A stretch of 64,000 nt of DNA from Anaerolineae bacterium (GCA_040767155.1 JAXGPC010000003.1:565520-629519), one strand, 5' to 3'; positions 51,305 to 63,845 are shown, counted from the first letter of the stretch. Notes: generated by a model from the sequence alone, not told the origin. Translations and numbers: made by a program.

Positions 51305-52687
51305 ATGGCTACCGAGCCCGGCGAGGAACTGACCGAACGCGAACTCGAGATCACGGCACTTGTCACAGAAGGGTTGACGAACCGTGAGATCGCCGCACGC
51401 CTGTTCCTCAGCCACAACACCATCAAGGTACACCTGCGCAACATCTTCACCAAGACTGGGGTAGCATCCCGCACCGAGCTGTCGATGCTCGCGGTTCAGG
51501 AAGGATGGGTTGCAGTCCCGGGCTTGGTCGAACCGGCAGCGACACCTTCGACGGACAGCTCGCCACTGGCGTCCATGCTGGACGAGGGTGCCCTGGATCA
51601 GGGCCTGGAACTTCCACCGAAGCCGGCACCTTGGCCGCTTCCGCGCTGGATCGCGCTGGCACTCGGTCTGGCCCTGGCACTCTTTGTAGCACTCCTGCCC
51701 CAGAGCCGCCAGGGACTCCCCGCAACAGCCGGCCCAGGCGTTGTCTTTGGTGCTGTGGATCCCGTGACACGCCCATCGGCTCCAGTGGCAGGCGATGGCT
51801 GGCAGGAGCGCACGCCGCTCCCCGTGCGGCGCGCGGGCATGGGAACGGCGAGCGTCGGCGACCGCGTCTATCTGGTCGGTGGCATGACCGATACAGGCAC
51901 GAGCGACCGCGTGGACGTCTACGACACCGAATCCGACACCTGGCACGCAGCGGCCCCGCGCCCCATAGCCCTGGCCAACGTCAGCGCGCTCGCGGTTGGC
52001 GAGGGAGTCCTCGTGCCCGGGGGATGTACGGATGACGGCAATTGGACCCCGAGTGCCGCGACCCACCTCTACGACCCTTCAAGCGACACCTGGTCCGATG
52101 TTGGCCCTCTCCCAACACCCCTCTGCGCCTATGCGTTGGCAGCGTATGACGGGCGAGCCTATCTGTTTGGCGGATGGGATGGGCATGCCTACCGGCGATT
52201 AGCCTACCGCTATGATCCGGTCACCGCGGTCTGGGAGGATCTCGCTGACCCGGCGCATGCGCGGGGATTCGGAGCGGCCGCGGCCATAGAGGACCGGGTC
52301 CTGTATGTCGGGGGATTCGTGGATGACCGTGAGGTGGCCACCTGCGAGGCCTATATCCCCGCCGAAAATCGATGGGAGAGCTGTCAGTCAATGCTTCAGC
52401 CGCGTGGAGGGCTGAGCCTCGTGGCCATAGGGGGCAGAGCCTATGCCATTGGCGGGGGTTGGCATACCCCGTTGGGGTTCAACGAGCGCTATACGCCCGG
52501 TCAGGATGCTTGGAGTGTCGTAGAATCGCCCATCGTGGGTGAATGGCGCAACCTGGGGGCTGTCTCTTCTGATACCTCGATTTTCACCTTCGGCGGATGG
52601 GGAGAGACGGGGTTCCTGAACGGCACCTATGTCGTGGAGGTCATGCCCTGGCGGGTCTTCATCCCAGGGACGTTCCGCACCCCCTGA
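51305..52687 (+). CDS. membrane-anchored LuxR/GerE-family HTH regulator with extracytoplasmic Kelch-repeat beta-propeller
   Basis: N-terminal LTERELEITALVTEGLTNREIAARLFLSHNTIKVHLRNIFTKTGVASRTEL; single TM RWIALALGLALALFVALL; Kelch-like repeats (VYLVGG, AYLFGGWDG, LYVGGF, AYAIGGGW, IFTFGGWG). Confidence 0.7.
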   Translation: MATEPGEELTERELEITALVTEGLTNREIAARLFLSHNTIKVHLRNIFTKTGVASRTELSMLAVQEGWVAVPGLVEPAATPSTDSSPLASMLDEGALDQGLELPPKPAPWPLPRWIALALGLALALFVALLPQSRQGLPATAGPGVVFGAVDPVTRPSAPVAGDGWQERTPLPVRRAGMGTASVGDRVYLVGGMTDTGTSDRVDVYDTESDTWHAAAPRPIALANVSALAVGEGVLVPGGCTDDGNWTPSAATHLYDPSSDTWSDVGPLPTPLCAYALAAYDGRAYLFGGWDGHAYRRLAYRYDPVTAVWEDLADPAHARGFGAAAAIEDRVLYVGGFVDDREVATCEAYIPAENRWESCQSMLQPRGGLSLVAIGGRAYAIGGGWHTPLGFNERYTPGQDAWSVVESPIVGEWRNLGAVSSDTSIFTFGGWGETGFLNGTYVVEVMPWRVFIPGTFRTP

Positions 52688-52695
52688 GCCCGACG

Positions 52696-53715
52696 TCAGG
52701 CTAGTTGCAGCCCGGGCTCGATATCAAGATCCCATCCAGCACGCTCTCCCGCCTGGAACCGGAAGTAGCCTGCAGCAGCAATCATCGCAGCATTGTCGGT
52801 GCATAGAATCCGGCGCAGTGTATAGACGGGCACTGCCACCTCCGAACGCATCGCTTCGCGCAACGCGGCATTCGCCGATACGCCACCGGACAACAGCACC
52901 GCGTTGACACCGAGTTCCTTCGCTGCACGTGCAGTCTTCTCCACAAGCACATCGACCACCGACATTTGAAACGCTGCAGCCATATTGGCATAGAAACTGT
53001 GAGAGACCGGTTCGGTGTAGCGCTGCTGTACACGCAACACCGCCGTCTTCAGCCCACTGAAACTGAAGTCATACGTACCGGGCAGCCATGCCCGGGGCAA
53101 ATCGAAAGCCTGCGGGTCCCCATTCTTCGCCGCCTGCTCGATTGCCGGGCCACCGGGGTAGCCCAACTTGAGCATGCGCGCCACTTTGTCAAACGCCTCG
53201 CCGGCAGCATCATCCAACGTGCTGCCCAAGCGCTCGTACCGGCCATGGTCGTGGGCCAGAATGAGATCCGTGTGCCCTCCAGAGACGATCAGCGCGATCA
53301 GCGGAAAGCGTGCCTTGCCATTCGCACTCCCCTCGGCACCCGTATTCAACCAGTGGGCGTAGAGGTGTCCTTCCAGATGGTTGACAGGGACGAGCGGCAA
53401 TCCCTTGGCAAGGGCCGCGCCCTTGGCATAGTTGAGCCCGACCAGCAGCGAACCGGGGAGGCCGGGGCCGTAGGTCACAGCAATGGCATCGAGATCGTCC
53501 CACCCCACGTAGGCCGCTGCCAGCGCCTCATCCACCGTCGGGATAATCGATTCGACGTGCATGCGCGAGGCCAGTTCCGGAAAGACCCCACCATACTGGG
53601 CGTGAAGCTCCGCTTGAGACGCCACGACGTTCGATAGAATGGTCGTTCCGTCCTCGATGACGGCAGCAGCAGTCTCATCACACGACGTCTCAATCCCGAG
53701 AATGCGAACCGTCAT
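52696..53715 (-). CDS. tsaD: tRNA N6-adenosine threonylcarbamoyltransferase
   Basis: ORF 52696..53742; preferred start MTVRILGIETSCDETAAAV; ATGA overlap with upstream peptidase gene. Confidence 0.85.
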   Translation of the reverse strand: MTVRILGIETSCDETAAAVIEDGTTILSNVVASQAELHAQYGGVFPELASRMHVESIIPTVDEALAAAYVGWDDLDAIAVTYGPGLPGSLLVGLNYAKGAALAKGLPLVPVNHLEGHLYAHWLNTGAEGSANGKARFPLIALIVSGGHTDLILAHDHGRYERLGSTLDDAAGEAFDKVARMLKLGYPGGPAIEQAAKNGDPQAFDLPRAWLPGTYDFSFSGLKTAVLRVQQRYTEPVSHSFYANMAAAFQMSVVDVLVEKTARAAKELGVNAVLLSGGVSANAALREAMRSEVAVPVYTLRRILCTDNAAMIAAAGYFRFQAGERAGWDLDIEPGLQLA

Positions 53716-54974
53716 CGGCCAATCTCCCTCTCCGCAGACCACTCGGGCATTGGCACTACCAGGTCATAGTCCATCTGTGTCAGCGTATGAACCTTGCCGG
53801 CGTCATCTATCCAGACCATGTCCTCGACACGACAACCCATGCCCCGTTCCGGATAGTAGAGCCCGGGCTCGAATGCAAACACATGGCCAGGCTCGAGAAC
53901 CATCGTGTTCCCGGGACTGTCGTGGAAGCCTGGGACCTCGTGAATGTCAAGACCGACCCCGTGCCCGACACTATGAACATAACCACTCTGAATGGCGGGG
54001 TCGTCAGCAATGGTCGCATGGCCGCGCGCTTTGAAGAAATCACACGTCATCCGCTGGTAATTGCGGACTTCCTCACCCGTGTGCAGGGCAGCCTTTACTG
54101 TCGTCAAGCACTCGTAAACATCACGATGGAGGCGCATAACAGCTTCGGGAGCGTAGCCAAGGCAGAATGTCCGCGTCAAGTCAAAGAAGTAGCCCCCACC
54201 CATCTGCCGGGGGAAAATATCGAAGACGATCGACTCTCCCAAGCGCATCGGCGCGTCAGATGTCCCCCGGCTGTGTGGAATACCAGCATCTCCTCCGGTG
54301 GCAAAGATGAACCCCTCAGGGTCCTCCAGACCCTGCGCCGCGATCAGGCGGACAATCTGTGCATGAACTTGCCCTACAGTGAGCACACTGCCGTCCTGCT
54401 TGCGCAAGATCTCATCTTCTCCCACATCGTGAGACTGCAAGAAGGCTCGCGTCTGCCGTACAACGTTGGCCGTTCTTATTCCCACCTCGCGGATGATTGC
54501 CACTTCGTCGGCATCCTTGGTTGCCCGCGCCACACGGATGAGATCCGGATCCATCTCCCCCACGATCTCGACATCAGGCGTTGCAGCATTCAGAGCGGTC
54601 AGGAACGTGTAGGCATACCCCTGGTCTAGATATCCGTAGCACCCCAGCCGACCCGTGATTCCCAAGTCGGCAAAGATGCGTTGGTAATAGGCGACCGATG
54701 CAGCCAATTCGTCACCGCCATGCTGCTCCAGGAGTGCGTTGTACTCATACCGTGTCGTCAACACTACCGGGTAACCCGCCTGTGCGGCAGAGCCACGATC
54801 CATCGGCCCCACAATGAGCGTTGGAGTCTCGCCACGTTTCTTGATGAGTACAGCACGGGTAACATGGGCCCCATTCAGCAGATAGACCAGGGGGGGATTT
54901 CCCAGGACTTTGCCGCTAACGAGGATGGCATCGAGGTTCCGAGCAGTCATCAGAGCATCGAGATCGCGCTTCAT
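53712..54974 (-). CDS. M24-family Xaa-Pro aminopeptidase/dipeptidase
   Basis: ORF 53712..55118; preferred start MKRDLDALMTARNLDAIL; M24 pita-bread fold with metal ligands ...HSVGHGVGLDIHE... Confidence 0.75.
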   Translation of the reverse strand: MKRDLDALMTARNLDAILVSGKVLGNPPLVYLLNGAHVTRAVLIKKRGETPTLIVGPMDRGSAAQAGYPVVLTTRYEYNALLEQHGGDELAASVAYYQRIFADLGITGRLGCYGYLDQGYAYTFLTALNAATPDVEIVGEMDPDLIRVARATKDADEVAIIREVGIRTANVVRQTRAFLQSHDVGEDEILRKQDGSVLTVGQVHAQIVRLIAAQGLEDPEGFIFATGGDAGIPHSRGTSDAPMRLGESIVFDIFPRQMGGGYFFDLTRTFCLGYAPEAVMRLHRDVYECLTTVKAALHTGEEVRNYQRMTCDFFKARGHATIADDPAIQSGYVHSVGHGVGLDIHEVPGFHDSPGNTMVLEPGHVFAFEPGLYYPERGMGCRVEDMVWIDDAGKVHTLTQMDYDLVVPMPEWSAEREIGR

Positions 54975-55121
54975 TGGGCACACCTTTCGGAGCGATGGAC
55001 GGCCGCCAGACTCCAGAATGCAGTCTGACATCATTGTGCCACAGGCAATGGAAAACGCAACGGCAGGTGCGCGTTGTCGCCTGGCCCTTTCCAAGTATAC
55101 TGGGCGGCACGAGGACATTCT

Positions 55122-56516
55122 ATGCTCAAACCATTGGTTGCTATCATAGGACGCCCCAACGTGGGCAAGTCAACACTCTTCAACCGCATCATTGGCGAAC
55201 GTCGGGCCGTCGTGAGCGACATCGCCGGTACCACCCGGGACCGGATTGTCGCTGACGCCGAATGGAACGGCCGCACGTTTCAGGTTGTTGACACCGGCGG
55301 CGTTGAAATCCTCCCGTCGACGGTGGAGAGTGGGCGCGCACCACTTGGCAGAGAGCCTCTCCTCCTCGACTCCGAAGACTTCATCCCCCTGATCCGGGCT
55401 CAGGCTGAGACCGCGATCGAGGATGCGGATCTCGTGCTATTCATCACGGATGCTGAGGCGGGCGTCACCGCCGCAGATCGTGAAGTTGCCGATCTCCTGC
55501 GTAAGTCGAAGAAACCGGTGTTTCTCGTTGCCAACAAGGCCGAGAGTCACGCACGCGAGCAGAATGCGCTGGAGTTCTACGAGCTCGGTATTGGAGACGT
55601 CTACACGGTATCCGCCATCCACGGCAGCGGTGTTGGCGATCTTCTCGATCTCATCGTCGAGCGCCTCCCGTGGATCGAGGAAGACGAGCAGCCCGATGAC
55701 AATGCCATCCACATTGCCATCATTGGCCGTCCCAACGTGGGGAAGTCCTCGTTGTTGAACCGCCTGTTGGGCCACGAGCGGGCCATTGTGAGCCCCGTCG
55801 CTGGAACCACCCGTGACGCGGTCGACACTTCGATGGAGTATGAGGGGCAGCAGTATGTTCTGGTAGACACCGCCGGGATCCGCAGGCGTGGAAAGGTCGA
55901 GGCCGGCGTCGAAAAATGGAGCACACTGCGCACGGCACGAGCGCTACAGCGAACGGACCTGGCCCTGCTGCTCATTGATGCCACGGAAGGAATCACGGCG
56001 CAGGACACCCACGTTGCCGGAATGACGCTCGATGAGGGCGTAAGCGTCGTCGTCCTGGTCAATAAATGGGATGCGATCGATGCGGAGTTGCGACAACGAC
56101 GTGCTGACATTGAGGAGCACGTTCGTGAAGAACTGAAGTTCCTGAGCTATATCCCGGTGCTCTTTGTCTCGGCGTTGACCGGCATGGGGGTGCACCAGAT
56201 CCTTCCCATGGCCAGAGAGGTTGTTGAAGCACGGTACCAGCAGCTTCCTGCCAACCTGCTCAACGACCTGATCCAGAAAGCGACGATAGAGCACGCACCT
56301 CCCAGCAGGAGTGGTCGCCGTCTACGCATCTTCTCGGTTGCGCAGACCCGTGTAGCCCCTCCCCACCTCGTCTTTTCAGTCGACGATCCCAAGCTGGTTC
56401 ATTTCTCCTATCAGCGTTACCTTGAGAATCGCATACGCGAGGCGTATCCCTTCCCTGGGACCCCGATCCAAATGACCTTCCGCGGAAACAGGCCAGACCG
56501 GAAAACAAAACGATAG
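55122..56516 (+). CDS. der: ribosome-associated GTPase Der/EngA (tandem GTPase domains plus KH-like domain)
   Basis: ORF 55074..56516; preferred ATG 55122 (MLKPLVAIIGRPNVGKSTLFN); second G domain IAIIGRPNVGKSSLLN. Confidence 0.9.
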   Translation: MLKPLVAIIGRPNVGKSTLFNRIIGERRAVVSDIAGTTRDRIVADAEWNGRTFQVVDTGGVEILPSTVESGRAPLGREPLLLDSEDFIPLIRAQAETAIEDADLVLFITDAEAGVTAADREVADLLRKSKKPVFLVANKAESHAREQNALEFYELGIGDVYTVSAIHGSGVGDLLDLIVERLPWIEEDEQPDDNAIHIAIIGRPNVGKSSLLNRLLGHERAIVSPVAGTTRDAVDTSMEYEGQQYVLVDTAGIRRRGKVEAGVEKWSTLRTARALQRTDLALLLIDATEGITAQDTHVAGMTLDEGVSVVVLVNKWDAIDAELRQRRADIEEHVREELKFLSYIPVLFVSALTGMGVHQILPMAREVVEARYQQLPANLLNDLIQKATIEHAPPSRSGRRLRIFSVAQTRVAPPHLVFSVDDPKLVHFSYQRYLENRIREAYPFPGTPIQMTFRGNRPDRKTKR

Positions 56517-59500
56517 GTGGTACTCGTGCGATCAGAGCTCAGGGTCGAGATCAGCAAACTGGGCAACAGGTTTCTGGCCGTCACCAGACGCCACGATGGC
56601 CAGGAGATACTGAGCAACGAGTTCCGCCTCGATCCGTCCAATCCGTCCGAGCACCTGCCGCAATGGCTGCTTGAACGGGATCAACTCGGCCAAGAGCGCA
56701 GCTTACAGCGAGATCGTGCCCGATCCCGGCATCAGGCAATCGCCACGGGGCGCAGCCTTTACCGGTACCTCTTTGGCAATGGGAAAGGTCTGCGGGCCTA
56801 CCTGGCGCAGCAGCCCGCCGGTGGGCCCTTGCAGTTCACGCTTTCAATCGGTCGTGAAGCCTATGCCCTCTGGCGATTCCCGTGGGAAACCCTCCATGAC
56901 GGCAGGCAATTCCTGGGCCTGGACGGACCTTTTCTCATCAATCGCCGACCGACCGACCTGCGCACGCTCACGCCTCAGCCCGGCGTTTCTCCGCTAAGAG
57001 TTCTGGCCGTCATTGCCAACCCCGAGGATCAGGCACGCTATGACACCACAGTAGTGTCGGATGTCCTGCTACAGTCGCTCGAGTCGCTCATCGGCCAAGG
57101 ACTGGTCAGGTTTGAGATCCTCACCGAGCCCACGTCGGCAGCGCTCCTGGCTGCCGTGCGCGAAAATACCTACCACGTAATCCACTTCATCGGGCACGGC
57201 GTCTTCTACCTCACCGAGAGCCAGGGTTTTCTGTGCCTTGAGGATGAGGTCGGCAAGACAGAGTTGCTGAGTGGCGCGCAACTTCCGCGGTTCCTGGAAG
57301 GCTGGACTCCGCGCCTCTTCTTGCTTTCGGCCTGTCCGACGGCCCAGGTCGGCACATCCGACGCCTTTACGGGTGTGGCCGATGAGCTACTCCACCACGA
57401 ATTCCCAGCGGTGATTACATCTGCGATCCATCTAGAGCCACCAGCGGCAGTTGCATACCACAGGGCGCTCTACTCTGAGCTCGCAACTGGCGCGTCGCTA
57501 ACCGAGAGCGTCCAGAGAGGCCGGCTTGCACTGCACGAAAACGATGACGGCGTGCGTCAGGATTACCAGGCTCTCGACTGGGCTACCCCGACCCTGTATC
57601 TGCGCGCGCCTGACATGAGGCTCATTCAGACTGAAGGAGAACCCGCTGCCGCGGAGGCCCCTGAGGGCGCCGTCCCGACTGCACCTGCCAGCGATCACGC
57701 AACACTCAAGGATGCGATCGGCCGAAAGCACGAGCTCCAGACCATTCGCAAAGCACTCAATGCCGGAGACCGGGTCTTCTACATCTGGGGCCATGAGGGC
57801 ATTGGCAAACGGCACCTTGTCTCGCGGCTTCTTGCGCACTGGCAACCCAGACCAAGCGCAGTTCTCAGGATTAGCTGCCGAACCACGGTAGAACCGCTTG
57901 TCGCCCTGGGGCGGATCGCAGACTTCTGGCGTGACATCTCGCCAGAAGGGAATCGCGAAGCCGCCAGGACCCTGCTCGATCTACGCCTCGATCCGTATGA
58001 CCGCGCCCGCACGGCTATGCAACAGGTGGCCGACAAACGGTATGTGGTCATCCTCGACGATATCGATGCGTGGTTCGACGACAGGGGTAACGGCCTGACC
58101 GGTACCATCGCCGACGTCACCGTTCGGAACATTCTGCTTGGCCTCATAAGCGTGACGAACCAGTCTGTCTTCCTGATCACCGGCAGCAGGTCCTGGACGG
58201 ACCTCACCACGGCGAATCTGGCCAACTTACGGCAGATACACGTTCCTCTCCTGCCGCTTGAGGCGACCATCCAACTGATGCATCAGTGGCCTGAGTTGCG
58301 TGGCCTCTCTACCGGCCAAAGAGAGTTGGTTCACTGGAATCTGGGCGGCCACCCAAAGGCGATCCAGCTCCTGGCTGGCTGGGTGCGCTGCGGGGGCGAT
58401 CTGGAAGCGCTACTCGCGGATCCACCTGTTGGTGATCGCGCGACACAGGCATGGGTATCATACCTCGCTGGGGACATCCTTGCCCGCCTGGACCCCGGCG
58501 AATATGACGTGCTGCGATCGCTGGCAATCCTCACCCAACCATTCACGTCTGCTACGATAGCCAGGCTAACACCTGTGACCGCCGAACACGCAGCCACTCT
58601 GGTCGCGGATTGGCAACGCCTCGGGCTGATCGACAATGCCGACACGGACGTACCGGCGATCTCGGTCGTGCAGCCTGAAGTACGGCGCATTATCCTGACC
58701 AGGCTCTCCGACGATGAGGCCAGTGCGCTGCATCGGCAGGCCGCGGCGTTCTACGGTGCGCCGTTGGTCGAAGCCGCTCGCCGGCAGATCCTGGCCCGCA
58801 ACGTCACGGCCTGGTCTCAGGAGCGGGTCGAATGGCTCGCAAGCGATACCAACGGCATCCTCGGCCTCTGGCTGCGCCAGCCACCGGGTGAGAGTAAGGT
58901 GAACAACGTATTGGAGCGTGCGCTGGCATGGCAGTACCACCTCACGCGCGCCGGTGCCCTATCTGCCGCAGCTCACGTCGTCCAGACGATAACCCCCGAG
59001 CTCAATCGCCAGGGTCAGCGGGACCTTTCCAAGAAGCTCAGCCAGCAGACCACAGAGACACCCGAGACGAGCTCACCCTTGGCTCCAGGCACCAGTACGG
59101 GCGACCTGACTGCCACCGCTCGGGCCTACGAGCGTGCCTACAAGGCGCTGGATCCGAAGAAAGACAGACGCAGGCGAGCACAGGTGCTTATGCAGCTAGC
59201 CGATGTGAACCGGCAGCTTGGACGGCGCCAGGCGGTTGTTCAGTGCCTGCGGACGGCGACCGAAGCGCTGCGCCAGGAACAGGATAGCAGAGGCGAAGCA
59301 GAGAGTCTCTACAGATTGGCCAGGGCATACCGCGACCTCCCCGATCACAAGCGTGCCCTGGCGGCAAGCCAGGCAGCGCTCGAGATCTTCGAATCGCTCA
59401 CCCTCCCCCACGGCCTCGCAGCGGTCGAGCGCGAGCAGGGGCTGATCCTGCGTGAGTTGGGATTCCCGGACGAAGCACTGAAGCGCTTTGCGTCGAGCCT

Positions 59501-59762
59501 GCGAACCTGCCGCGATCTGGATGATCGCCCCGGCGTCGTCGCAAACCTGATGGACATCGGGTTACTCCTCGAGCGACTCGGAAAGACCGAGATGGCCATC
59601 CAGGTCATCGAGGAGGCGCTCGATCACTGTGACTATCTACACGACCCTGACCACCCCGAGGTGCTGTCACTGCTTGAGCGGCTCTACGGTCGGCAGCAGC
59701 GTCTCAGCGAGGCAATGGCACGCTACCGCACGGCCAGACGCAGCGCTGAAGCACAATCCTAG
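56517..59762 (+). CDS. CHAT (caspase-like) domain / STAND-type P-loop NTPase / TPR-like repeat protein (NLR-like tripartite architecture)
   Basis: 1081 aa; non-ATG (GTG) start directly after the der stop; CHAT-like His/Cys context HFIGHGVFYL...LFLLSACPTAQ; NTPase IWGHEGIGKRHLVSRLL (Walker A-like) and VVILDDIDAWFDD (Walker B); C-terminal helical repeats with TPR-like periodicity. Confidence 0.7.
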   Translation: MVLVRSELRVEISKLGNRFLAVTRRHDGQEILSNEFRLDPSNPSEHLPQWLLERDQLGQERSLQRDRARSRHQAIATGRSLYRYLFGNGKGLRAYLAQQPAGGPLQFTLSIGREAYALWRFPWETLHDGRQFLGLDGPFLINRRPTDLRTLTPQPGVSPLRVLAVIANPEDQARYDTTVVSDVLLQSLESLIGQGLVRFEILTEPTSAALLAAVRENTYHVIHFIGHGVFYLTESQGFLCLEDEVGKTELLSGAQLPRFLEGWTPRLFLLSACPTAQVGTSDAFTGVADELLHHEFPAVITSAIHLEPPAAVAYHRALYSELATGASLTESVQRGRLALHENDDGVRQDYQALDWATPTLYLRAPDMRLIQTEGEPAAAEAPEGAVPTAPASDHATLKDAIGRKHELQTIRKALNAGDRVFYIWGHEGIGKRHLVSRLLAHWQPRPSAVLRISCRTTVEPLVALGRIADFWRDISPEGNREAARTLLDLRLDPYDRARTAMQQVADKRYVVILDDIDAWFDDRGNGLTGTIADVTVRNILLGLISVTNQSVFLITGSRSWTDLTTANLANLRQIHVPLLPLEATIQLMHQWPELRGLSTGQRELVHWNLGGHPKAIQLLAGWVRCGGDLEALLADPPVGDRATQAWVSYLAGDILARLDPGEYDVLRSLAILTQPFTSATIARLTPVTAEHAATLVADWQRLGLIDNADTDVPAISVVQPEVRRIILTRLSDDEASALHRQAAAFYGAPLVEAARRQILARNVTAWSQERVEWLASDTNGILGLWLRQPPGESKVNNVLERALAWQYHLTRAGALSAAAHVVQTITPELNRQGQRDLSKKLSQQTTETPETSSPLAPGTSTGDLTATARAYERAYKALDPKKDRRRRAQVLMQLADVNRQLGRRQAVVQCLRTATEALRQEQDSRGEAESLYRLARAYRDLPDHKRALAASQAALEIFESLTLPHGLAAVEREQGLILRELGFPDEALKRFASSLRTCRDLDDRPGVVANLMDIGLLLERLGKTEMAIQVIEEALDHCDYLHDPDHPEVLSLLERLYGRQQRLSEAMARYRTARRSAEAQS

Positions 59763-59770
59763 TCTATCAT

Positions 59771-62700
59771 TCAGGGCGAGGCCTGGACATCAACCGTGGT
59801 GAGAAGTGCACGGTCCTCCGGAACCCGCTCGTCCCCCACGTAGAGCGCAGCCCGCAATCCATCCCTGGCATCATACAGCCCAATGTATAGCCCATAGGTA
59901 CCTGAGGGCGCACCGGCATCAAGCATGAGGACGTGCTCGTCGGCGATGATCTCTCCAGCAACCCAGGTCGTCGTTGGAGCATAGCCCTGGGCAGGCCACA
60001 TGTCAGACTGTCCCCACACCCGGCCATCAGGACCCACAGCATGCACGAAGACCGTATAGTCGCGGGCAACGTCGCCTGATGCACGCCAGTAGAGCGTGAC
60101 GCCAAGTGCACCACCGGGCTCCAATGACACCGGCGAGACATCAGCACCGAGGAGGCTGCCGATCCGCTCTACGCTCAGGCTGGAGGAAACGGCAGGCTGA
60201 TGGGAGAGCGAATACGTCCGGGCGCGCTGCGTGATCGCGAGCTCTCCCAGGATGACCGCCTCATGTGCAGTCGAGGGAACGGCAGGGTCACCGCCGGCTG
60301 GCCTGACTGAAAAACAGCACGTTTGCTCCAGAGCCGCGCCTAGTGTCGCCGGGTTCAGGCGCGGCGCGAAGCGCAGGACATAGCGCGCTCCCGTCGCCCA
60401 GAGATCCGCCGCCCTGGCTGGCAGCGATAACGTGCCACCATCGCGACTCACACCACCACACTCCAGGTCCCAATGAAGGCCATCCGGCAGTTCACCTTCC
60501 AGCCGCTCTACGCCAAGGCTGAAGGGGAGCCGCTGACCGGCCTGCACACGCGTTGTGCTAAACCCGGTTGCCACAACCCGCAGCCCTGGCCAGTCGCTAT
60601 CTGCGGGCCTATCCAGAGTCAGTTCAGCAGCAGGCCCACGCGCCGGCCCCACCTCCACGACACCCAGGGCCAACTCCGTCCCGCCAAAGCTCCCGTCGGC
60701 ACGTCCGATGCCCAACATCCCCTGCAGGCCACTGACGCGCAACACGAGGCGGTAGGACCCAGGGGGAAGGTGCGGCGGCAGGACAATGTAGGCCTCTGTG
60801 TCGACAGCCACTCCCACAGGCCAGTCCGGCGCGGCCCAACCCCAGTCACTGAGCAGCCTGCGTCCTCCTTCCGCCCAGATGACCTCATCCCCATCACCGT
60901 CACCGCGCAGGGCCAGGTAGACCTCCACCTCTTCCTGGGGTACCTGAGCCCACCAGCGCAAGCGGACTGTCAGCGGATCGGGAGGTCGCGTCACATCATC
61001 CCAGGTCGTGGCCAGGAGATCCAGACCGCCTCCAAAACGCGCAAGGTAAGGAGAGTCCTTCGGGAGGTCGGCCAGGACCGTGCACTTCTCGACCTCCCAC
61101 CCGAAGATTGGAGCGTCCGCCTCACAGGCGAGACTTCCCGTTTCAACTGCCTCATCGAGGGCACGTTTGAGCTGAGCCTCCGTCAATGGATGGCATTGCG
61201 GGGCATGGATCCAATAGAAACTTCCCTCTGAGGTCTGTTGCGCGAGCCACGCCCACAACGTAGCGGAATCTGTGGCGGGGGCCCCAGCATCGGCAGGCAG
61301 CCCCGGAAGTGGGCCGGGCGCGACGAATGTCCCTGGAGACTCAGATGTCTGCACGTGGCCATAGACTCGCGATTGCGCTCTCCCGCCAGATCTGAGGTCA
61401 GCCAGCAAAGCATACTGCTCGGGCAAGGGGCTGTCCCCGCCAATGAGGAAATCCGTACAGCCCAGGCAAGTCTCGTCCCAGGCAATGGTGCTCCCCACGA
61501 AGAAACCCGCCGTGCCGGGCACGTTGCCTGTCATCACCGATGTGCCCTCGGCGTGACGGTTCAACCATCGGGCTGCTAACCCCGACGCCTCCCCCCAACC
61601 CAGAGGCACCACATGCTGAGCAACCCACGGCCCCCCAAGCATAGGATTTGCGTACTGCAGCGGTAACAACGCCACGAGCGCCCAGGGCAGTGCCAGGCTG
61701 ACAAGCACAGCAATCCGCACGCCCTGGCGCCGGTGCGACCAGGCCATTGCCGCCACAAGTGTGAGCAGCGGGATGAGGGTCAACACATACCGGTCGAACT
61801 TCTTCTCTGCGGTCGTAATGCCAATCAGAGTACTGAGAGCGGGTAATAGCGTCCAGATCAGGGGACGGAAACGGCTGAAGTACCTGTCGCGACGATGCCC
61901 AATCCAGGAGAGGAGGCCAGTCAACACCGGCGGCGTCAACCGGAAAAGCAACACGACCAGGTAGAACCACGCCCCCGGATCGGTGCTCGTCTCACCGGCA
62001 AAGAACACGGGACGGAGGCCGATGCCCTCGTGGTAGGTCACGGCTCCAATGAGCGATGCCAATGCCTCCCGGGGTGACAGCCACATGGCAGGATAGAGCA
62101 GCACCAGGAATGCCATTGTCAGCAGTGCTAGCACGGCGACGCGGGCGATCCGCAGATAGATTGGGCCTTTCCACCAGAGAAAGAGAGCCAGTGCCAACCC
62201 CGGAGCCGCCAGTAGCCCGAGCATCTTGGTCAGGCCCGCCAATGCCAGAAAAGCCGCGCTCGCCACGATGCTGGGTAGCCATTCACGAACGGCTGTGTCT
62301 GTTGCGCGGCGACGAACCGGCAGGGTGTAGGCCACAGCCAGGAGTACAAAGGTTGCCTGAAGCCCATCCGTGTGGAGCAGACCCGAATGACCGGCGAGAA
62401 AGGGGTCAAGGGCCAGACACAAAGCCGCCAACCTGGCAACCCGACCGCCGATCCGGCGTCTGATGACCACGTGAACAAGAGCCAACCCCGCCGACGTCAC
62501 GCACGCAACGAGGATCCGGCCTGCAGGCAGAAAGGCAACCAGGTGTGGGAAAGCCGCGCCATTCTCAGGCGCCAGCGTGGCGATACGATCGATCCAATCG
62601 CGCTGTGCTGCAGCCTCGGCTGGATTAACCCGCTCCGATAGCCAGATGCCCAACGCCCCAAGAGCCATCGTCGTCATCCCGGGATGGCCTGTCTGAGGGA

Positions 62701-62875
62701 TAGCTGCCAGATCGGAAGTCTCGACAGCCTGGAGGAACTCGTGACTGCGCAGAACCCAGATCGGTTCATCCGGCGTGACGTAGAGTCCCAACGGCATCAG
62801 ACGAACGATGAACGCCACAGCGAAGATCGCGGCGCTCAAGGCGATCGAATCAGTCCGGCGCGACCGCCGTTTCAC
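59771..62875 (-). CDS. GT-C fold glycosyltransferase (ArnT/PMT-like, GT39/GT83-type) with about 600-aa extracytoplasmic C-terminal domain
   Basis: 1034 aa; about 11-13 N-terminal TM helices with GT-C loop motifs; large soluble C-terminal region. Confidence 0.65.
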   Translation of the reverse strand: MKRRSRRTDSIALSAAIFAVAFIVRLMPLGLYVTPDEPIWVLRSHEFLQAVETSDLAAIPQTGHPGMTTMALGALGIWLSERVNPAEAAAQRDWIDRIATLAPENGAAFPHLVAFLPAGRILVACVTSAGLALVHVVIRRRIGGRVARLAALCLALDPFLAGHSGLLHTDGLQATFVLLAVAYTLPVRRRATDTAVREWLPSIVASAAFLALAGLTKMLGLLAAPGLALALFLWWKGPIYLRIARVAVLALLTMAFLVLLYPAMWLSPREALASLIGAVTYHEGIGLRPVFFAGETSTDPGAWFYLVVLLFRLTPPVLTGLLSWIGHRRDRYFSRFRPLIWTLLPALSTLIGITTAEKKFDRYVLTLIPLLTLVAAMAWSHRRQGVRIAVLVSLALPWALVALLPLQYANPMLGGPWVAQHVVPLGWGEASGLAARWLNRHAEGTSVMTGNVPGTAGFFVGSTIAWDETCLGCTDFLIGGDSPLPEQYALLADLRSGGRAQSRVYGHVQTSESPGTFVAPGPLPGLPADAGAPATDSATLWAWLAQQTSEGSFYWIHAPQCHPLTEAQLKRALDEAVETGSLACEADAPIFGWEVEKCTVLADLPKDSPYLARFGGGLDLLATTWDDVTRPPDPLTVRLRWWAQVPQEEVEVYLALRGDGDGDEVIWAEGGRRLLSDWGWAAPDWPVGVAVDTEAYIVLPPHLPPGSYRLVLRVSGLQGMLGIGRADGSFGGTELALGVVEVGPARGPAAELTLDRPADSDWPGLRVVATGFSTTRVQAGQRLPFSLGVERLEGELPDGLHWDLECGGVSRDGGTLSLPARAADLWATGARYVLRFAPRLNPATLGAALEQTCCFSVRPAGGDPAVPSTAHEAVILGELAITQRARTYSLSHQPAVSSSLSVERIGSLLGADVSPVSLEPGGALGVTLYWRASGDVARDYTVFVHAVGPDGRVWGQSDMWPAQGYAPTTTWVAGEIIADEHVLMLDAGAPSGTYGLYIGLYDARDGLRAALYVGDERVPEDRALLTTVDVQASP

Positions 62876-62876
62876 G

Positions 62877-63845
62877 CTACTCCTCAGTTCGGATCGCGTA
62901 GACCGGTTTTTCCTGGACCTCGTAATAGGTTCGCGCCTGGAGCTCGCCCAGCAAGCCCATCACCAGGAACTGCGCGCCGAGGATCATGAGCAGGATCGCC
63001 AGCGAGAGCAATGGGCGGTTGCCGATGTCAGCGCCAGTGAAGATCTTGAACAGCGCGAGGTACAGCGCCACCAGGAAACCAATGCCCCCACTGGCCAGCC
63101 CCGCCAGGCCAAAGAGCTGCATCGGGCGGCCCATATAGCTTAACAGGAAGGAGACCGTCACCAAATCCAGGATGACGCGAACCGTTTTGGATAGGTTGTA
63201 CTTCGATTTCCCGAAGGTGCGGGGGCGATCGTTGACCGGAACCTCGGCAACTCGCACACCAAGCCCCGAAGCAAGCGCCGGAATAAAGCGGTGAAGCTCA
63301 CCGTAAAGGTTTACGTTCTTCGCGACATCGTGGTGGTAGATCTTCAACGAACATCCATAGTCGTGAAGCTTGACGCCAGTAGACCGGCCAATGATCCGGT
63401 TGGCCAGCATCGACGGCAAGCGTCGTGACAGGAGTGGCTCCTTGCGCTCCTGGCGCCAACCACTCACAATGTCGTAGTCGCCCTCTTCCGCTACCTTCAG
63501 CATCTTCGCGACATCAGCCGGATCGTTCTGTCCGTCGGCGTCCATCGTGATGACATACCGGCCTCGCGATAGATCAAACCCGGCGGCAAACGCAGCAGTC
63601 TGCCCGAAGTTGCGTCTGAACCGGACGATGCGCAGATGTGGCTCATCCGACTTCAGTGTACGCAGTATCGCCACACTGTCGTCGGAGCTACCATCGTCCA
63701 CAGCAATGATCTCGTAGGCGCGTCCCAGGGCACCCAACGCAGCAGACAACTCCGGGATGAAGAGCTGCAGGTTTCCGGCCTCGTTGTAGATCGGCAACAC
63801 GATCGAGAGTTCGAGCTCGGGTGCTCCCACATGCTTGTGCGACAT
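62877..63845 (-). CDS. GT2 polyprenol-phosphate sugar synthase (DPM1/ArnC-like)
   Basis: 322 aa; LSIVLPIYNEAGNL, VDDGSSD, TMDADGQND motifs, C-terminal TM helices; GGAGGAGG RBS; 1-nt gap to the downstream GT-C gene. Confidence 0.8.
   Translation of the reverse strand: MSHKHVGAPELELSIVLPIYNEAGNLQLFIPELSAALGALGRAYEIIAVDDGSSDDSVAILRTLKSDEPHLRIVRFRRNFGQTAAFAAGFDLSRGRYVITMDADGQNDPADVAKMLKVAEEGDYDIVSGWRQERKEPLLSRRLPSMLANRIIGRSTGVKLHDYGCSLKIYHHDVAKNVNLYGELHRFIPALASGLGVRVAEVPVNDRPRTFGKSKYNLSKTVRVILDLVTVSFLLSYMGRPMQLFGLAGLASGGIGFLVALYLALFKIFTGADIGNRPLLSLAILLMILGAQFLVMGLLGELQARTYYEVQEKPVYAIRTEE

Follow-up and report, generated by a model that had tools for sequence, protein, structure and literature searches.

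The window analysed here is a stretch of 64,000 nucleotides from an Anaerolineae bacterium (GCA_040767155.1, JAXGPC010000003.1:565520-629519), and all positions are counted from its first letter. Directly downstream of der (engA), which encodes a ribosome-assembly GTPase, the window carries a gene whose product joins a caspase-like CHAT domain, a STAND-type nucleotide-binding oligomerisation domain (NOD) and an array of tetratricopeptide repeats (TPR); it is referred to below as the CHAT gene. What is established for this gene and its orthologues is the architecture and fold, a fixed position, a native base composition, purifying selection, repeated loss of the protease dyad, and replacement of the serine or threonine of the Walker A motif.

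The CHAT gene and its product

The open reading frame (ORF) reported by a first-pass annotation of this DNA, 1081 residues from a GTG at 56517 to 59762 on the plus strand, is present and represents the maximal extent of the gene. As described there, this GTG abuts the der stop codon (TAG, 56514-56516), and the ORF of the convergent downstream gene ends at 59771, leaving a gap of 8 nt. A GTG does lie at 56517, but the codon used is probably the second GTG, at 56526, which gives a protein of 1078 residues. The second codon is preferred because the called orthologues P0001-P0004 begin at the equivalent position; it also has a Shine-Dalgarno-like AGGTGG 5 nt upstream, overlapping the der stop, in a junction kept at loci L045 and L004. 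Residues are numbered from GTG 56517 unless stated, while the structural model follows the 1078-residue form.

56515..56520, plus strand: Shine-Dalgarno-like AGGTGG, read from the sequence; overlaps the der TAG and precedes GTG 56526
56526..59762, plus strand: CHAT-STAND-TPR gene, likeliest extent, 1078 residues and stop, with the start called in P0001-P0004
56517..56744, plus strand: N-terminal unit, residues 1-76; a three-stranded beta-sheet at residues 7-36, then poorly ordered (AlphaFold2)
56745..57596, plus strand: CHAT (caspase-like) domain, residues 77-360, with His227 and Cys273
57639..57707, plus strand: disordered, poorly conserved linker, residues ~375-397; predicted local distance difference test (pLDDT) below 50 at model residues 372-394; conservation minimum of the protein
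57723..58250, plus strand: STAND nucleotide-binding domain (NBD), residues ~403-578; Walker A at 57789-57812, Walker B at 58044-58061
58257..58700, plus strand: helical and winged-helix domains of the NOD, residues ~581-728, from the model; GxP-type LGGHP (G610-P613) at 58344-58355
58710..59057, plus strand: helical arm or spine from NOD to TPR, residues ~732-847
59106..59756, plus strand: C-terminal TPR array, residues ~864-1080, about 5-6 repeats

The annotation had read three parts from the sequence, a CHAT domain, a P-loop NTPase and a TPR array, and had proposed profile searches and structure prediction as checks. Both bear the layout out. In Pfam, CHAT (PF12770) matches residues 77-360 (E=1.2e-26; 94.3 bits against a cut-off of 24; profile positions 3-286 of 289), AAA_16 matches residues 401-525 (35.9 bits against 32.6), and TPR_12 matches four stretches at residues ~865-1040 (67 bits against 30.1). 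These matches are far beyond chance. The Pfam NACHT profile remained below threshold on the protein, at 17.3 bits against a cut-off of 26.7.

The AlphaFold2 model, made from an alignment of 16 homologues (mean pLDDT 83, predicted template modelling score 0.68), resolves the same segments. It contains the three-stranded N-terminal unit (model residues 4-33), an alpha/beta CHAT domain (~100-360), the disordered linker (372-394), an NBD (400-575), a helical domain (578-631), a winged-helix domain (640-725) and the helical arm (729-844), followed by a short disordered loop and the TPR array (861-1077). A Foldseek search with the model found PH0952 (E=2e-13 over 693 columns) and Avs3 (1e-7), as well as Apaf-1 and MalT, and there is structural similarity also to plant NLRs and CED-4. 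The predicted combination of CHAT, STAND NOD and TPR folds is an NLR-like layout. A sequence search of the PDB returned TPR proteins only, with no match to the CHAT or NOD parts, so the relationships of these two parts came only through the structural model.

All of the motifs quoted in the annotation were located: HFIGHG (H223...H227-G228), LLSACPTAQ (C273), GHEGIGKRH (residues 425-433) and VVILDDID (residues 510-517). The dyad residues His227 (57195-57197) and Cys273 (57333-57335) are both intact in the window copy and align with the dyad columns of 300+ relatives. Three features of the CHAT family (a profile match above threshold, a His/Cys dyad in this order and a caspase-like alpha/beta fold) are present. 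The Walker B motif (VVILDD, residues 510-515) has the hhhhD[D/E] form. The Walker A-like motif is where it was said to be, but it is not canonical: in G425-HEGIG-K431-R432 an arginine follows the lysine, where the pattern GxxxxGK[S/T] has serine or threonine. As in STAND proteins, the NOD of the model folds into three domains, the helical one bearing a GxP motif, and it lies between an N-terminal effector (CHAT) and a C-terminal repeat sensor (TPR_12). The GGHP motif is kept in most relatives, including the outgroup.

Conservation along the protein peaks in the helical arm (residues 754-828, ARRQILARN.TAWS.ER.EWLA.D..G; AWQYHL). In the N-terminal unit, which precedes the Pfam CHAT match, E7, L8, R9, E11, G16 and N17 are invariant among close orthologues.

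Neighbourhood, inheritance and selection

The immediate neighbours of the CHAT gene are der on one side and two genes connected with glycosylation on the other, the GT2 family glycosyltransferase being the conserved partner of the large membrane protein.

55122..56516, plus strand: der (engA), ribosome-assembly GTPase; two MMR_HSR1 domains and a KH_dom-like domain (Pfam)
59771..62875, minus strand: convergent polytopic membrane protein, 1034 residues; weak PMT_2 match (GT-C-like), 19 bits, below the cut-off
62877..63845, minus strand: GT2 family glycosyltransferase; orthologues match PF00535, with 76-95% identity across loci that have the complete gene

The orthologues of the CHAT gene form a tight, full-length family. 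Members at 87, 61, 52, 45 and 43% identity all share the order tilS, LuxR/Kelch gene, tsaD, M24 peptidase gene, der, CHAT gene, GT-C gene (convergent), GT2 gene, rpmG, and the slot from der to the GT2 gene is found at >30 loci across a deep clade of Chloroflexota. Two scans bear on its stability. The first was anchored on the downstream membrane protein, with one genome per species, and covered 41 loci. In all 22 loci with der downstream of the GT gene, among them metagenome-assembled genomes (MAGs) labelled Thermoflexus, Thermoflexales and Anaerolineales, a full-length CHAT gene lies between the two, down to 34-37% identity, and no empty der-GT junction was found among the loci scanned. The arrangement is old, since even the identity of Der falls to 65-70% at the deepest loci with der linkage. 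The second scan, of metagenomes, was anchored on the CHAT gene: each of the eight loci at >=34% identity with upstream DNA has der immediately upstream, while relatives at <=29% identity are never der-linked.

At the base of the family the arrangement loosens. The basal relative at L058 has 1.7 kb of upstream DNA without der. At L047, the locus of the basal relative P0059, the order is der, a UPF0020 methyltransferase gene (L047:6859-7923), the CHAT gene and a convergent WecG-type glycosyltransferase gene. UPF0020 is a putative RNA methylase family, and L047 keeps both the der linkage and a convergent glycosyltransferase though the individual genes differ. The gap between der and the CHAT gene reaches 97-315 nt in some loci (L046, L003). 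Four GT-anchored loci with downstream DNA (L014, L015, L023 and L029) have neither the CHAT gene nor der. They were considered as deletions of the CHAT gene, and this was rejected, since der is also absent from all four; downstream of L014 and L029 lie unrelated housekeeping genes (ADP-forming acetyl-CoA synthetase; hrcA-grpE-dnaK-dnaJ). From this gene content they are read as synteny breakpoints, uninformative on presence or absence.

The annotation had described an inserted accessory gene and had named as evidence against its proposal the occurrence of orthologues beside der across the lineage together with a housekeeping role. The idea of an insertion is rejected: the base composition of the CHAT gene (GC 0.623; GC at third codon positions 0.71) lies within the range of its neighbours and shows no deviation from the flanking genes, orthologues hold the der-adjacent slot in >30 loci, and there are no empty sites. 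Of the two, it is the position that holds. No relatives of the protein were found on viral contigs, and plasmids yielded no full-length relatives, only partial matches at <=27% identity that fall largely on the CHAT domain.

The gene is probably co-transcribed with der, judging from the junction, where no terminator-like site was found on the plus strand between the two genes. In five of six close pairs, synonymous divergence (pS) is markedly reduced in the first ~40 codons (56526-56645) relative to the rest of the gene, for example 0.07 against 0.29 between the window and L045, and 0.16 against 0.40 between L011 and L028. This suggests selection on the 5' end of the mRNA, either for translation initiation or for coupling to der.

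Between the window and L045 (dS 0.35, unsaturated), the ratio of nonsynonymous to synonymous divergence (dN/dS) of the CHAT gene is 0.20, compared with 0.21 for the neighbouring GT-C gene and 0.06-0.08 for der, tsaD and the GT2 gene. By domain it is 0.18 in CHAT, 0.26 in the NBD, 0.21 in the helical and winged-helix domains, 0.11 in the arm and 0.12 in the TPR array. Six other pairs range from 0.08 to 0.28. These ratios indicate purifying selection over the whole length of a gene that is not in decay. The protein has diverged evenly from end to end, with no hypervariability in the TPR array; a hypervariable sensor was considered and rejected, as per-domain identity and dN/dS make the TPR end usually the most constrained. 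The broken ORFs at L012 and L040 were likewise not accepted as pseudogenes. Both come from nanopore MAGs, and a frameshift error is likelier, given that der is split in the same project (L002/L005). Of these nanopore 'MFD' MAGs, L002 has der as a pair of ORFs, and L012 and L040 have a truncated CHAT gene.

Further upstream in the window, the listed ORFs of the M24 peptidase gene (53712-55118, minus strand, 468 residues) and der (55074-56516, plus strand, 480 residues, from a TTG at 55074) overlap head to head. Orthologues have 411-420 residues for the peptidase and 463-468 for Der, so the true starts are probably internal; ATG 55122 would give a Der of 464 residues, as in orthologues. Internal starts would leave a divergent intergenic region with a promoter-like site at 55074-55101. 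Another gene of the shared block (51305-52687, plus strand) encodes a protein of 460 residues with an N-terminal LuxR/GerE helix-turn-helix, a hydrophobic segment and a C-terminal Kelch beta-propeller, an unusual architecture for a regulator, which is 52-82% identical and in the same syntenic block where the block was recovered.

Erosion of the catalytic motifs

The motifs were surveyed in 24 aligned orthologues, and then in 319 database proteins and the locus-derived orthologues, which were scored against the family profile; a neighbour-joining tree was made with 16 outgroup sequences. Relatives scoring below ~650 bits almost always have the His, the Cys, GxGGxGK[S/T], hhhhFD and GGHP, and they are not der-linked where checked (P0060, P0061). 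The clade at >=750 bits contains every der-linked locus. In this clade the dyad is broken in at least 10 different ways, in roughly a quarter of members: C>P (P0007/L055), Y/S (P0057), Q/Y (L020, P0176, P0184), C>G (P0175), N/Q (P0179), C>A (P0183), H>Q (P0059), C>S (P0186), Y/R (L040/P0191) and H>L (L054). Read on these aligned sequences, the dyad was lost about ten separate times in the der-linked clade. The losses are not sequencing errors, because the dyad-dead P0057 reads the same on five contigs and occupies the usual syntenic slot, a separate assembly also has the C>P allele, and L020 and P0176 share a dead Q/Y dyad at 70% identity.

A second erosion affects the P-loop. The residue after the Walker A Lys431 is serine in deep, Thermoflexus-type orthologues; the window copy belongs to a subclade, at least 19 sequences strong, with R, H, Q or G instead. 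Deeper orthologues, and all 16 outgroup sequences in the tree, have canonical motifs with GK[ST]. In several members of the R/H/Q/G subclade (L006, L007, L032, L016, L038, L050) the Walker B acid is also lost, displaced by an insertion or deleted. Every der-linked orthologue in the alignment has GxxGxGK. P-loop NTPases bind Mg through the Ser/Thr of Walker A, a strictly conserved ligand (10.1101/2022.06.23.497301). Because this ligand is replaced by Arg432, the window protein is most likely incapable of normal Mg-NTP hydrolysis. Selection persists in the degenerate group: dN/dS is 0.08-0.17 among canonical-motif (Thermoflexus-type) members and 0.13-0.28 among those with a degenerate P-loop, and NBDs without the Walker B acid still show 0.13-0.21.

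The canonical relatives that are not der-linked have a different setting. In P0060 and P0061 the gene is followed by a same-strand pair of small genes (L048:12708-13357 and L049:10564-11216). The first encodes a protein of ~70 residues that has a CxxC pair (...CPYC...) at its C-terminal end and is 42% identical between L048 and L049, and the second a predicted membrane protein of ~148 residues with hydrophobic, apparently membrane-spanning stretches, 57% identical. Neither protein has a solid Pfam match, and no homologues of the two genes were found in the window or at the der-linked loci. The two proteins may be substrates or effector partners of canonical CHAT-STAND-TPR systems.

Possible functions and known systems

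The ancestor of the family would have been a canonical, NLR-like CHAT-STAND-TPR protein of the 'conflict-system' kind, which became fixed directly downstream of der in the ancestral lineage of a clade of Chloroflexota (MAGs under the labels Anaerolineae, Thermoflexales and Thermoflexus) and would since have been inherited vertically as a single, core-like gene, probably co-transcribed with der. We infer that the preserved function is not immune proteolysis driven by ATP hydrolysis. Instead, the NOD fold, the TPR array and the strongly conserved helical arm would have a binding, scaffolding or switch function and recognise a conserved partner of endogenous origin. A ligand may still open or oligomerise the window copy and so unite CHAT domains to cleave a specific cellular substrate, for which the cleavage of PatU3 by HetF in filamentous cyanobacteria is a precedent; such regulated cleavage is plausible because H227 and C273 are intact. 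With its GKR P-loop, activation might proceed without normal Mg-NTP hydrolysis, with the nucleotide as a structural cofactor, or with none. The reading that we favour, and on which we are about evenly divided, is thus of a domesticated NLR-like protein with an endogenous role in binding, scaffolding or switching, in which proteolysis may be optional. More tentatively, and with more doubt than belief, the protein could have moved by exaptation from a conflict system to a core cellular function, as a der-linked scaffold or regulator in a clade of probably filamentous Chloroflexota, without NTP hydrolysis and often without protease activity. If so, the family would offer natural intermediates between an active NLR and a double pseudo-enzyme within one orthologous, syntenic gene.

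Several considerations weigh against domestication. The endogenous role is argued wholly from the evolutionary pattern, and some defence genes are also lineage-fixed. The dyad is kept in the window copy and in most orthologues (about 70-75%), so proteolysis is still selected in most lineages, and since GxxGxGK is invariant, binding of nucleotide or phosphate may persist. The tree is a simple neighbour-joining one, and der-linkage of the dyad-dead P0175, P0179, P0183 and P0186 is presumptive. The genomes are mostly MAGs, so that 'core' status within genomes is provisional, and where der and the CHAT gene are both missing, at four of the GT-anchored loci, a relocated copy may lie elsewhere in the genome.

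A rival reading is a working anti-phage NLR of the Avs kind: the TPR array would sense a conserved phage protein, the NOD would oligomerise, and CHAT would kill or arrest the cell in abortive infection, the gene having become lineage-fixed by chance. The effector-NOD-sensor order, the structural similarity to Avs3, Apaf-1, plant NLRs and CED-4, the intact dyad of the window copy, and the thousands of CHAT-STAND-repeat relatives, with the TIR, WD40 and FGE fusions that characterise conflict systems, all speak for it. So does the reported enrichment of CHAT-STAND-type, NLR-like conflict systems in filamentous or multicellular bacteria, including Chloroflexi (10.1101/2020.01.06.895854, PMC7159879, PMC8195603). 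We nevertheless consider it unlikely. A PADLOC scan found no Avs, NACHT or other specific defence model, only the generic TPR model PDLC01169 (8.7e-6), and the NACHT profile is below its cut-off. Housekeeping synteny is invariant over deep divergence, with no empty sites and no association with mobile elements; the TPR end is the most constrained part rather than a diversifying one; the window copy lacks the Mg-ligand Ser/Thr; the dyad has been lost repeatedly while the ORFs stay under purifying selection; and the small partner genes of the canonical relatives are absent. The role in defence or programmed cell death that the first-pass annotation had suggested therefore finds no backing beyond architecture, in a protein whose P-loop is degenerate in the window copy and whose dyad is dispensable in many orthologues.

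The function could instead be tied to the neighbours, either with Der in 50S assembly or quality control, as a scaffold or as a protease of an assembly factor, or in regulating envelope glycosylation by the GT-C and GT2 proteins. A 9-nt junction between der and the CHAT gene, with a Shine-Dalgarno-like site over the der stop and no terminator, is in keeping with this, as is the reduced synonymous change in the first ~40 codons, which is consistent with translational coupling; der linkage survives different downstream genes at L047, and the GT-C gene evolves at the rate of the CHAT gene. Adjacency by itself, though, is weak evidence, the gap is 97-315 nt in L046 and L003, the basal L058 has no der in its 1.7 kb upstream, and the protein has no domain known to bind ribosomes or glycosyltransferases, which makes this explanation improbable. 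A decaying relic without current function, heading to a pseudogene, is more improbable by far and largely refuted already. Many orthologues have eroded Walker A, Walker B or dyad motifs, and dN/dS is somewhat higher in the degenerate-P-loop subclade than in the canonical group, as such decay would lead one to expect; against it, ORFs remain full-length (about 1080-1110 residues) in >30 lineages and are broken only in nanopore MAGs with a split der, no domain and no pair has a dN/dS anywhere near 1, the arm and TPR array contain long invariant stretches, and a dead-dyad state has persisted across 30% divergence.

Multicellular bacteria commonly carry CHAT-STAND-TPR proteins, which are as a rule taken for modules of immunity or cell death, although almost none have been studied. 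The present orthologous group is fixed beside an essential ribosome-assembly gene, is under purifying selection, and has lost its enzymatic residues stepwise and repeatedly. If domestication is the right reading, it cautions against labelling every NLR-like architecture as defence, and the group would be a tractable evolutionary series on what an NLR scaffold does after NTP hydrolysis and protein cleavage have gone. This is not a new kind of system, since the architecture was known before and is widespread, with 4,234 cluster representatives at E<=1e-30. The novelty lies in how the orthologous group behaves: syntenic, der-linked, vertically inherited, and graded from canonical to doubly degenerate. 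The most similar CHAT domains occur in Chloroflexota, Actinomycetota and Acidobacteriota, fused to WD40, FGE-sulfatase (SUMF1), TIR, TonB_C and NB-ARC/NACHT domains (P0064-P0170); among them is P0074, a distinct CHAT-NB-ARC-TPR protein from the annotation of a Thermoflexales genome. Canonical paralogues are therefore present in the same lineages as well.

In Avs-type systems, ligand-triggered oligomerisation activates an N-terminal effector (10.64898/2026.08.25.746987). The likeness to Avs and bNACHT that had been proposed for the window protein stands for the layout, with effector, NOD and repeat sensor in one polypeptide, and for the Foldseek match to Avs3, but not for the PADLOC model, the NACHT cut-off or the distribution. 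The behaviour of an accessory gene, expected of Avs and bNACHT, is not seen (fixed synteny, native composition, no viral or full-length plasmid relatives). The der-linked family has a fixed housekeeping synteny, whereas those systems are patchily distributed in islands; its sensor is conserved rather than diversifying, its P-loop is degenerate, and the catalytic residues of its effector are often lost. STAND ATPases of the MalT/PH0952 type, which serve signal transduction in bacteria and archaea, share the TPR-like sensor. They have a DNA-binding domain where the window protein has an N-terminal CHAT protease effector, and differ also in that the window subclade lacks the Walker A Ser/Thr. In the Apaf-1/CED-4 apoptosome the caspase is recruited through a CARD and the sensor is WD40, whereas here CHAT is fused in cis and the sensor is TPR, in a bacterial protein that probably handles nucleotide in an altered way.

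Among CHAT proteases, HetF of Anabaena is chromosomal and conserved, with an endogenous substrate (PatU3) and a role in cell division and differentiation (PMC9457339, PMC8406250). It lacks both STAND and TPR modules and has been described as part of the divisome, and the window protein is not an orthologue: the HetF model NF045509 (NCBIfam) scores 28.9 bits against a cut-off of 1200 (E 3.5e-7), over the CHAT region only. Csx29 (TPR-CHAT, of Craspase), SAVED-CHAT proteins and separase also differ. In Csx29 the TPR part is N-terminal, not C-terminal as here, and the der-linked protein has a STAND NOD as its switch rather than a CRISPR or cyclic oligoadenylate (cOA) partner. No gasdermin, Cas7-11 or SAVED/cOA partner genes accompany it, the neighbours being der, GT-C and GT2 genes in all loci, and the MoxR and vWA genes that accompany inactive STAND modules (iSTAND) in ternary systems (Kaur et al. 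2020) do not occur in the conserved neighbourhood.

Pseudo-orthocaspases keep the caspase fold with Y and S in place of H and C (PMC6426788), which is exactly the state of P0057. Inactive STAND modules with eroded NTP-binding motifs, and inactive caspase domains, also have precedents (PMC7159879, PMC8195603). These belong to other families and contexts, namely p20 orthocaspases and MoxR-vWA ternary systems, whereas here both erosions occur within one orthologous, syntenic, single-gene lineage. The window copy, with its dyad intact and its P-loop altered to GKR, stands half-way to a pseudo-enzyme and is a natural separation-of-function allele.

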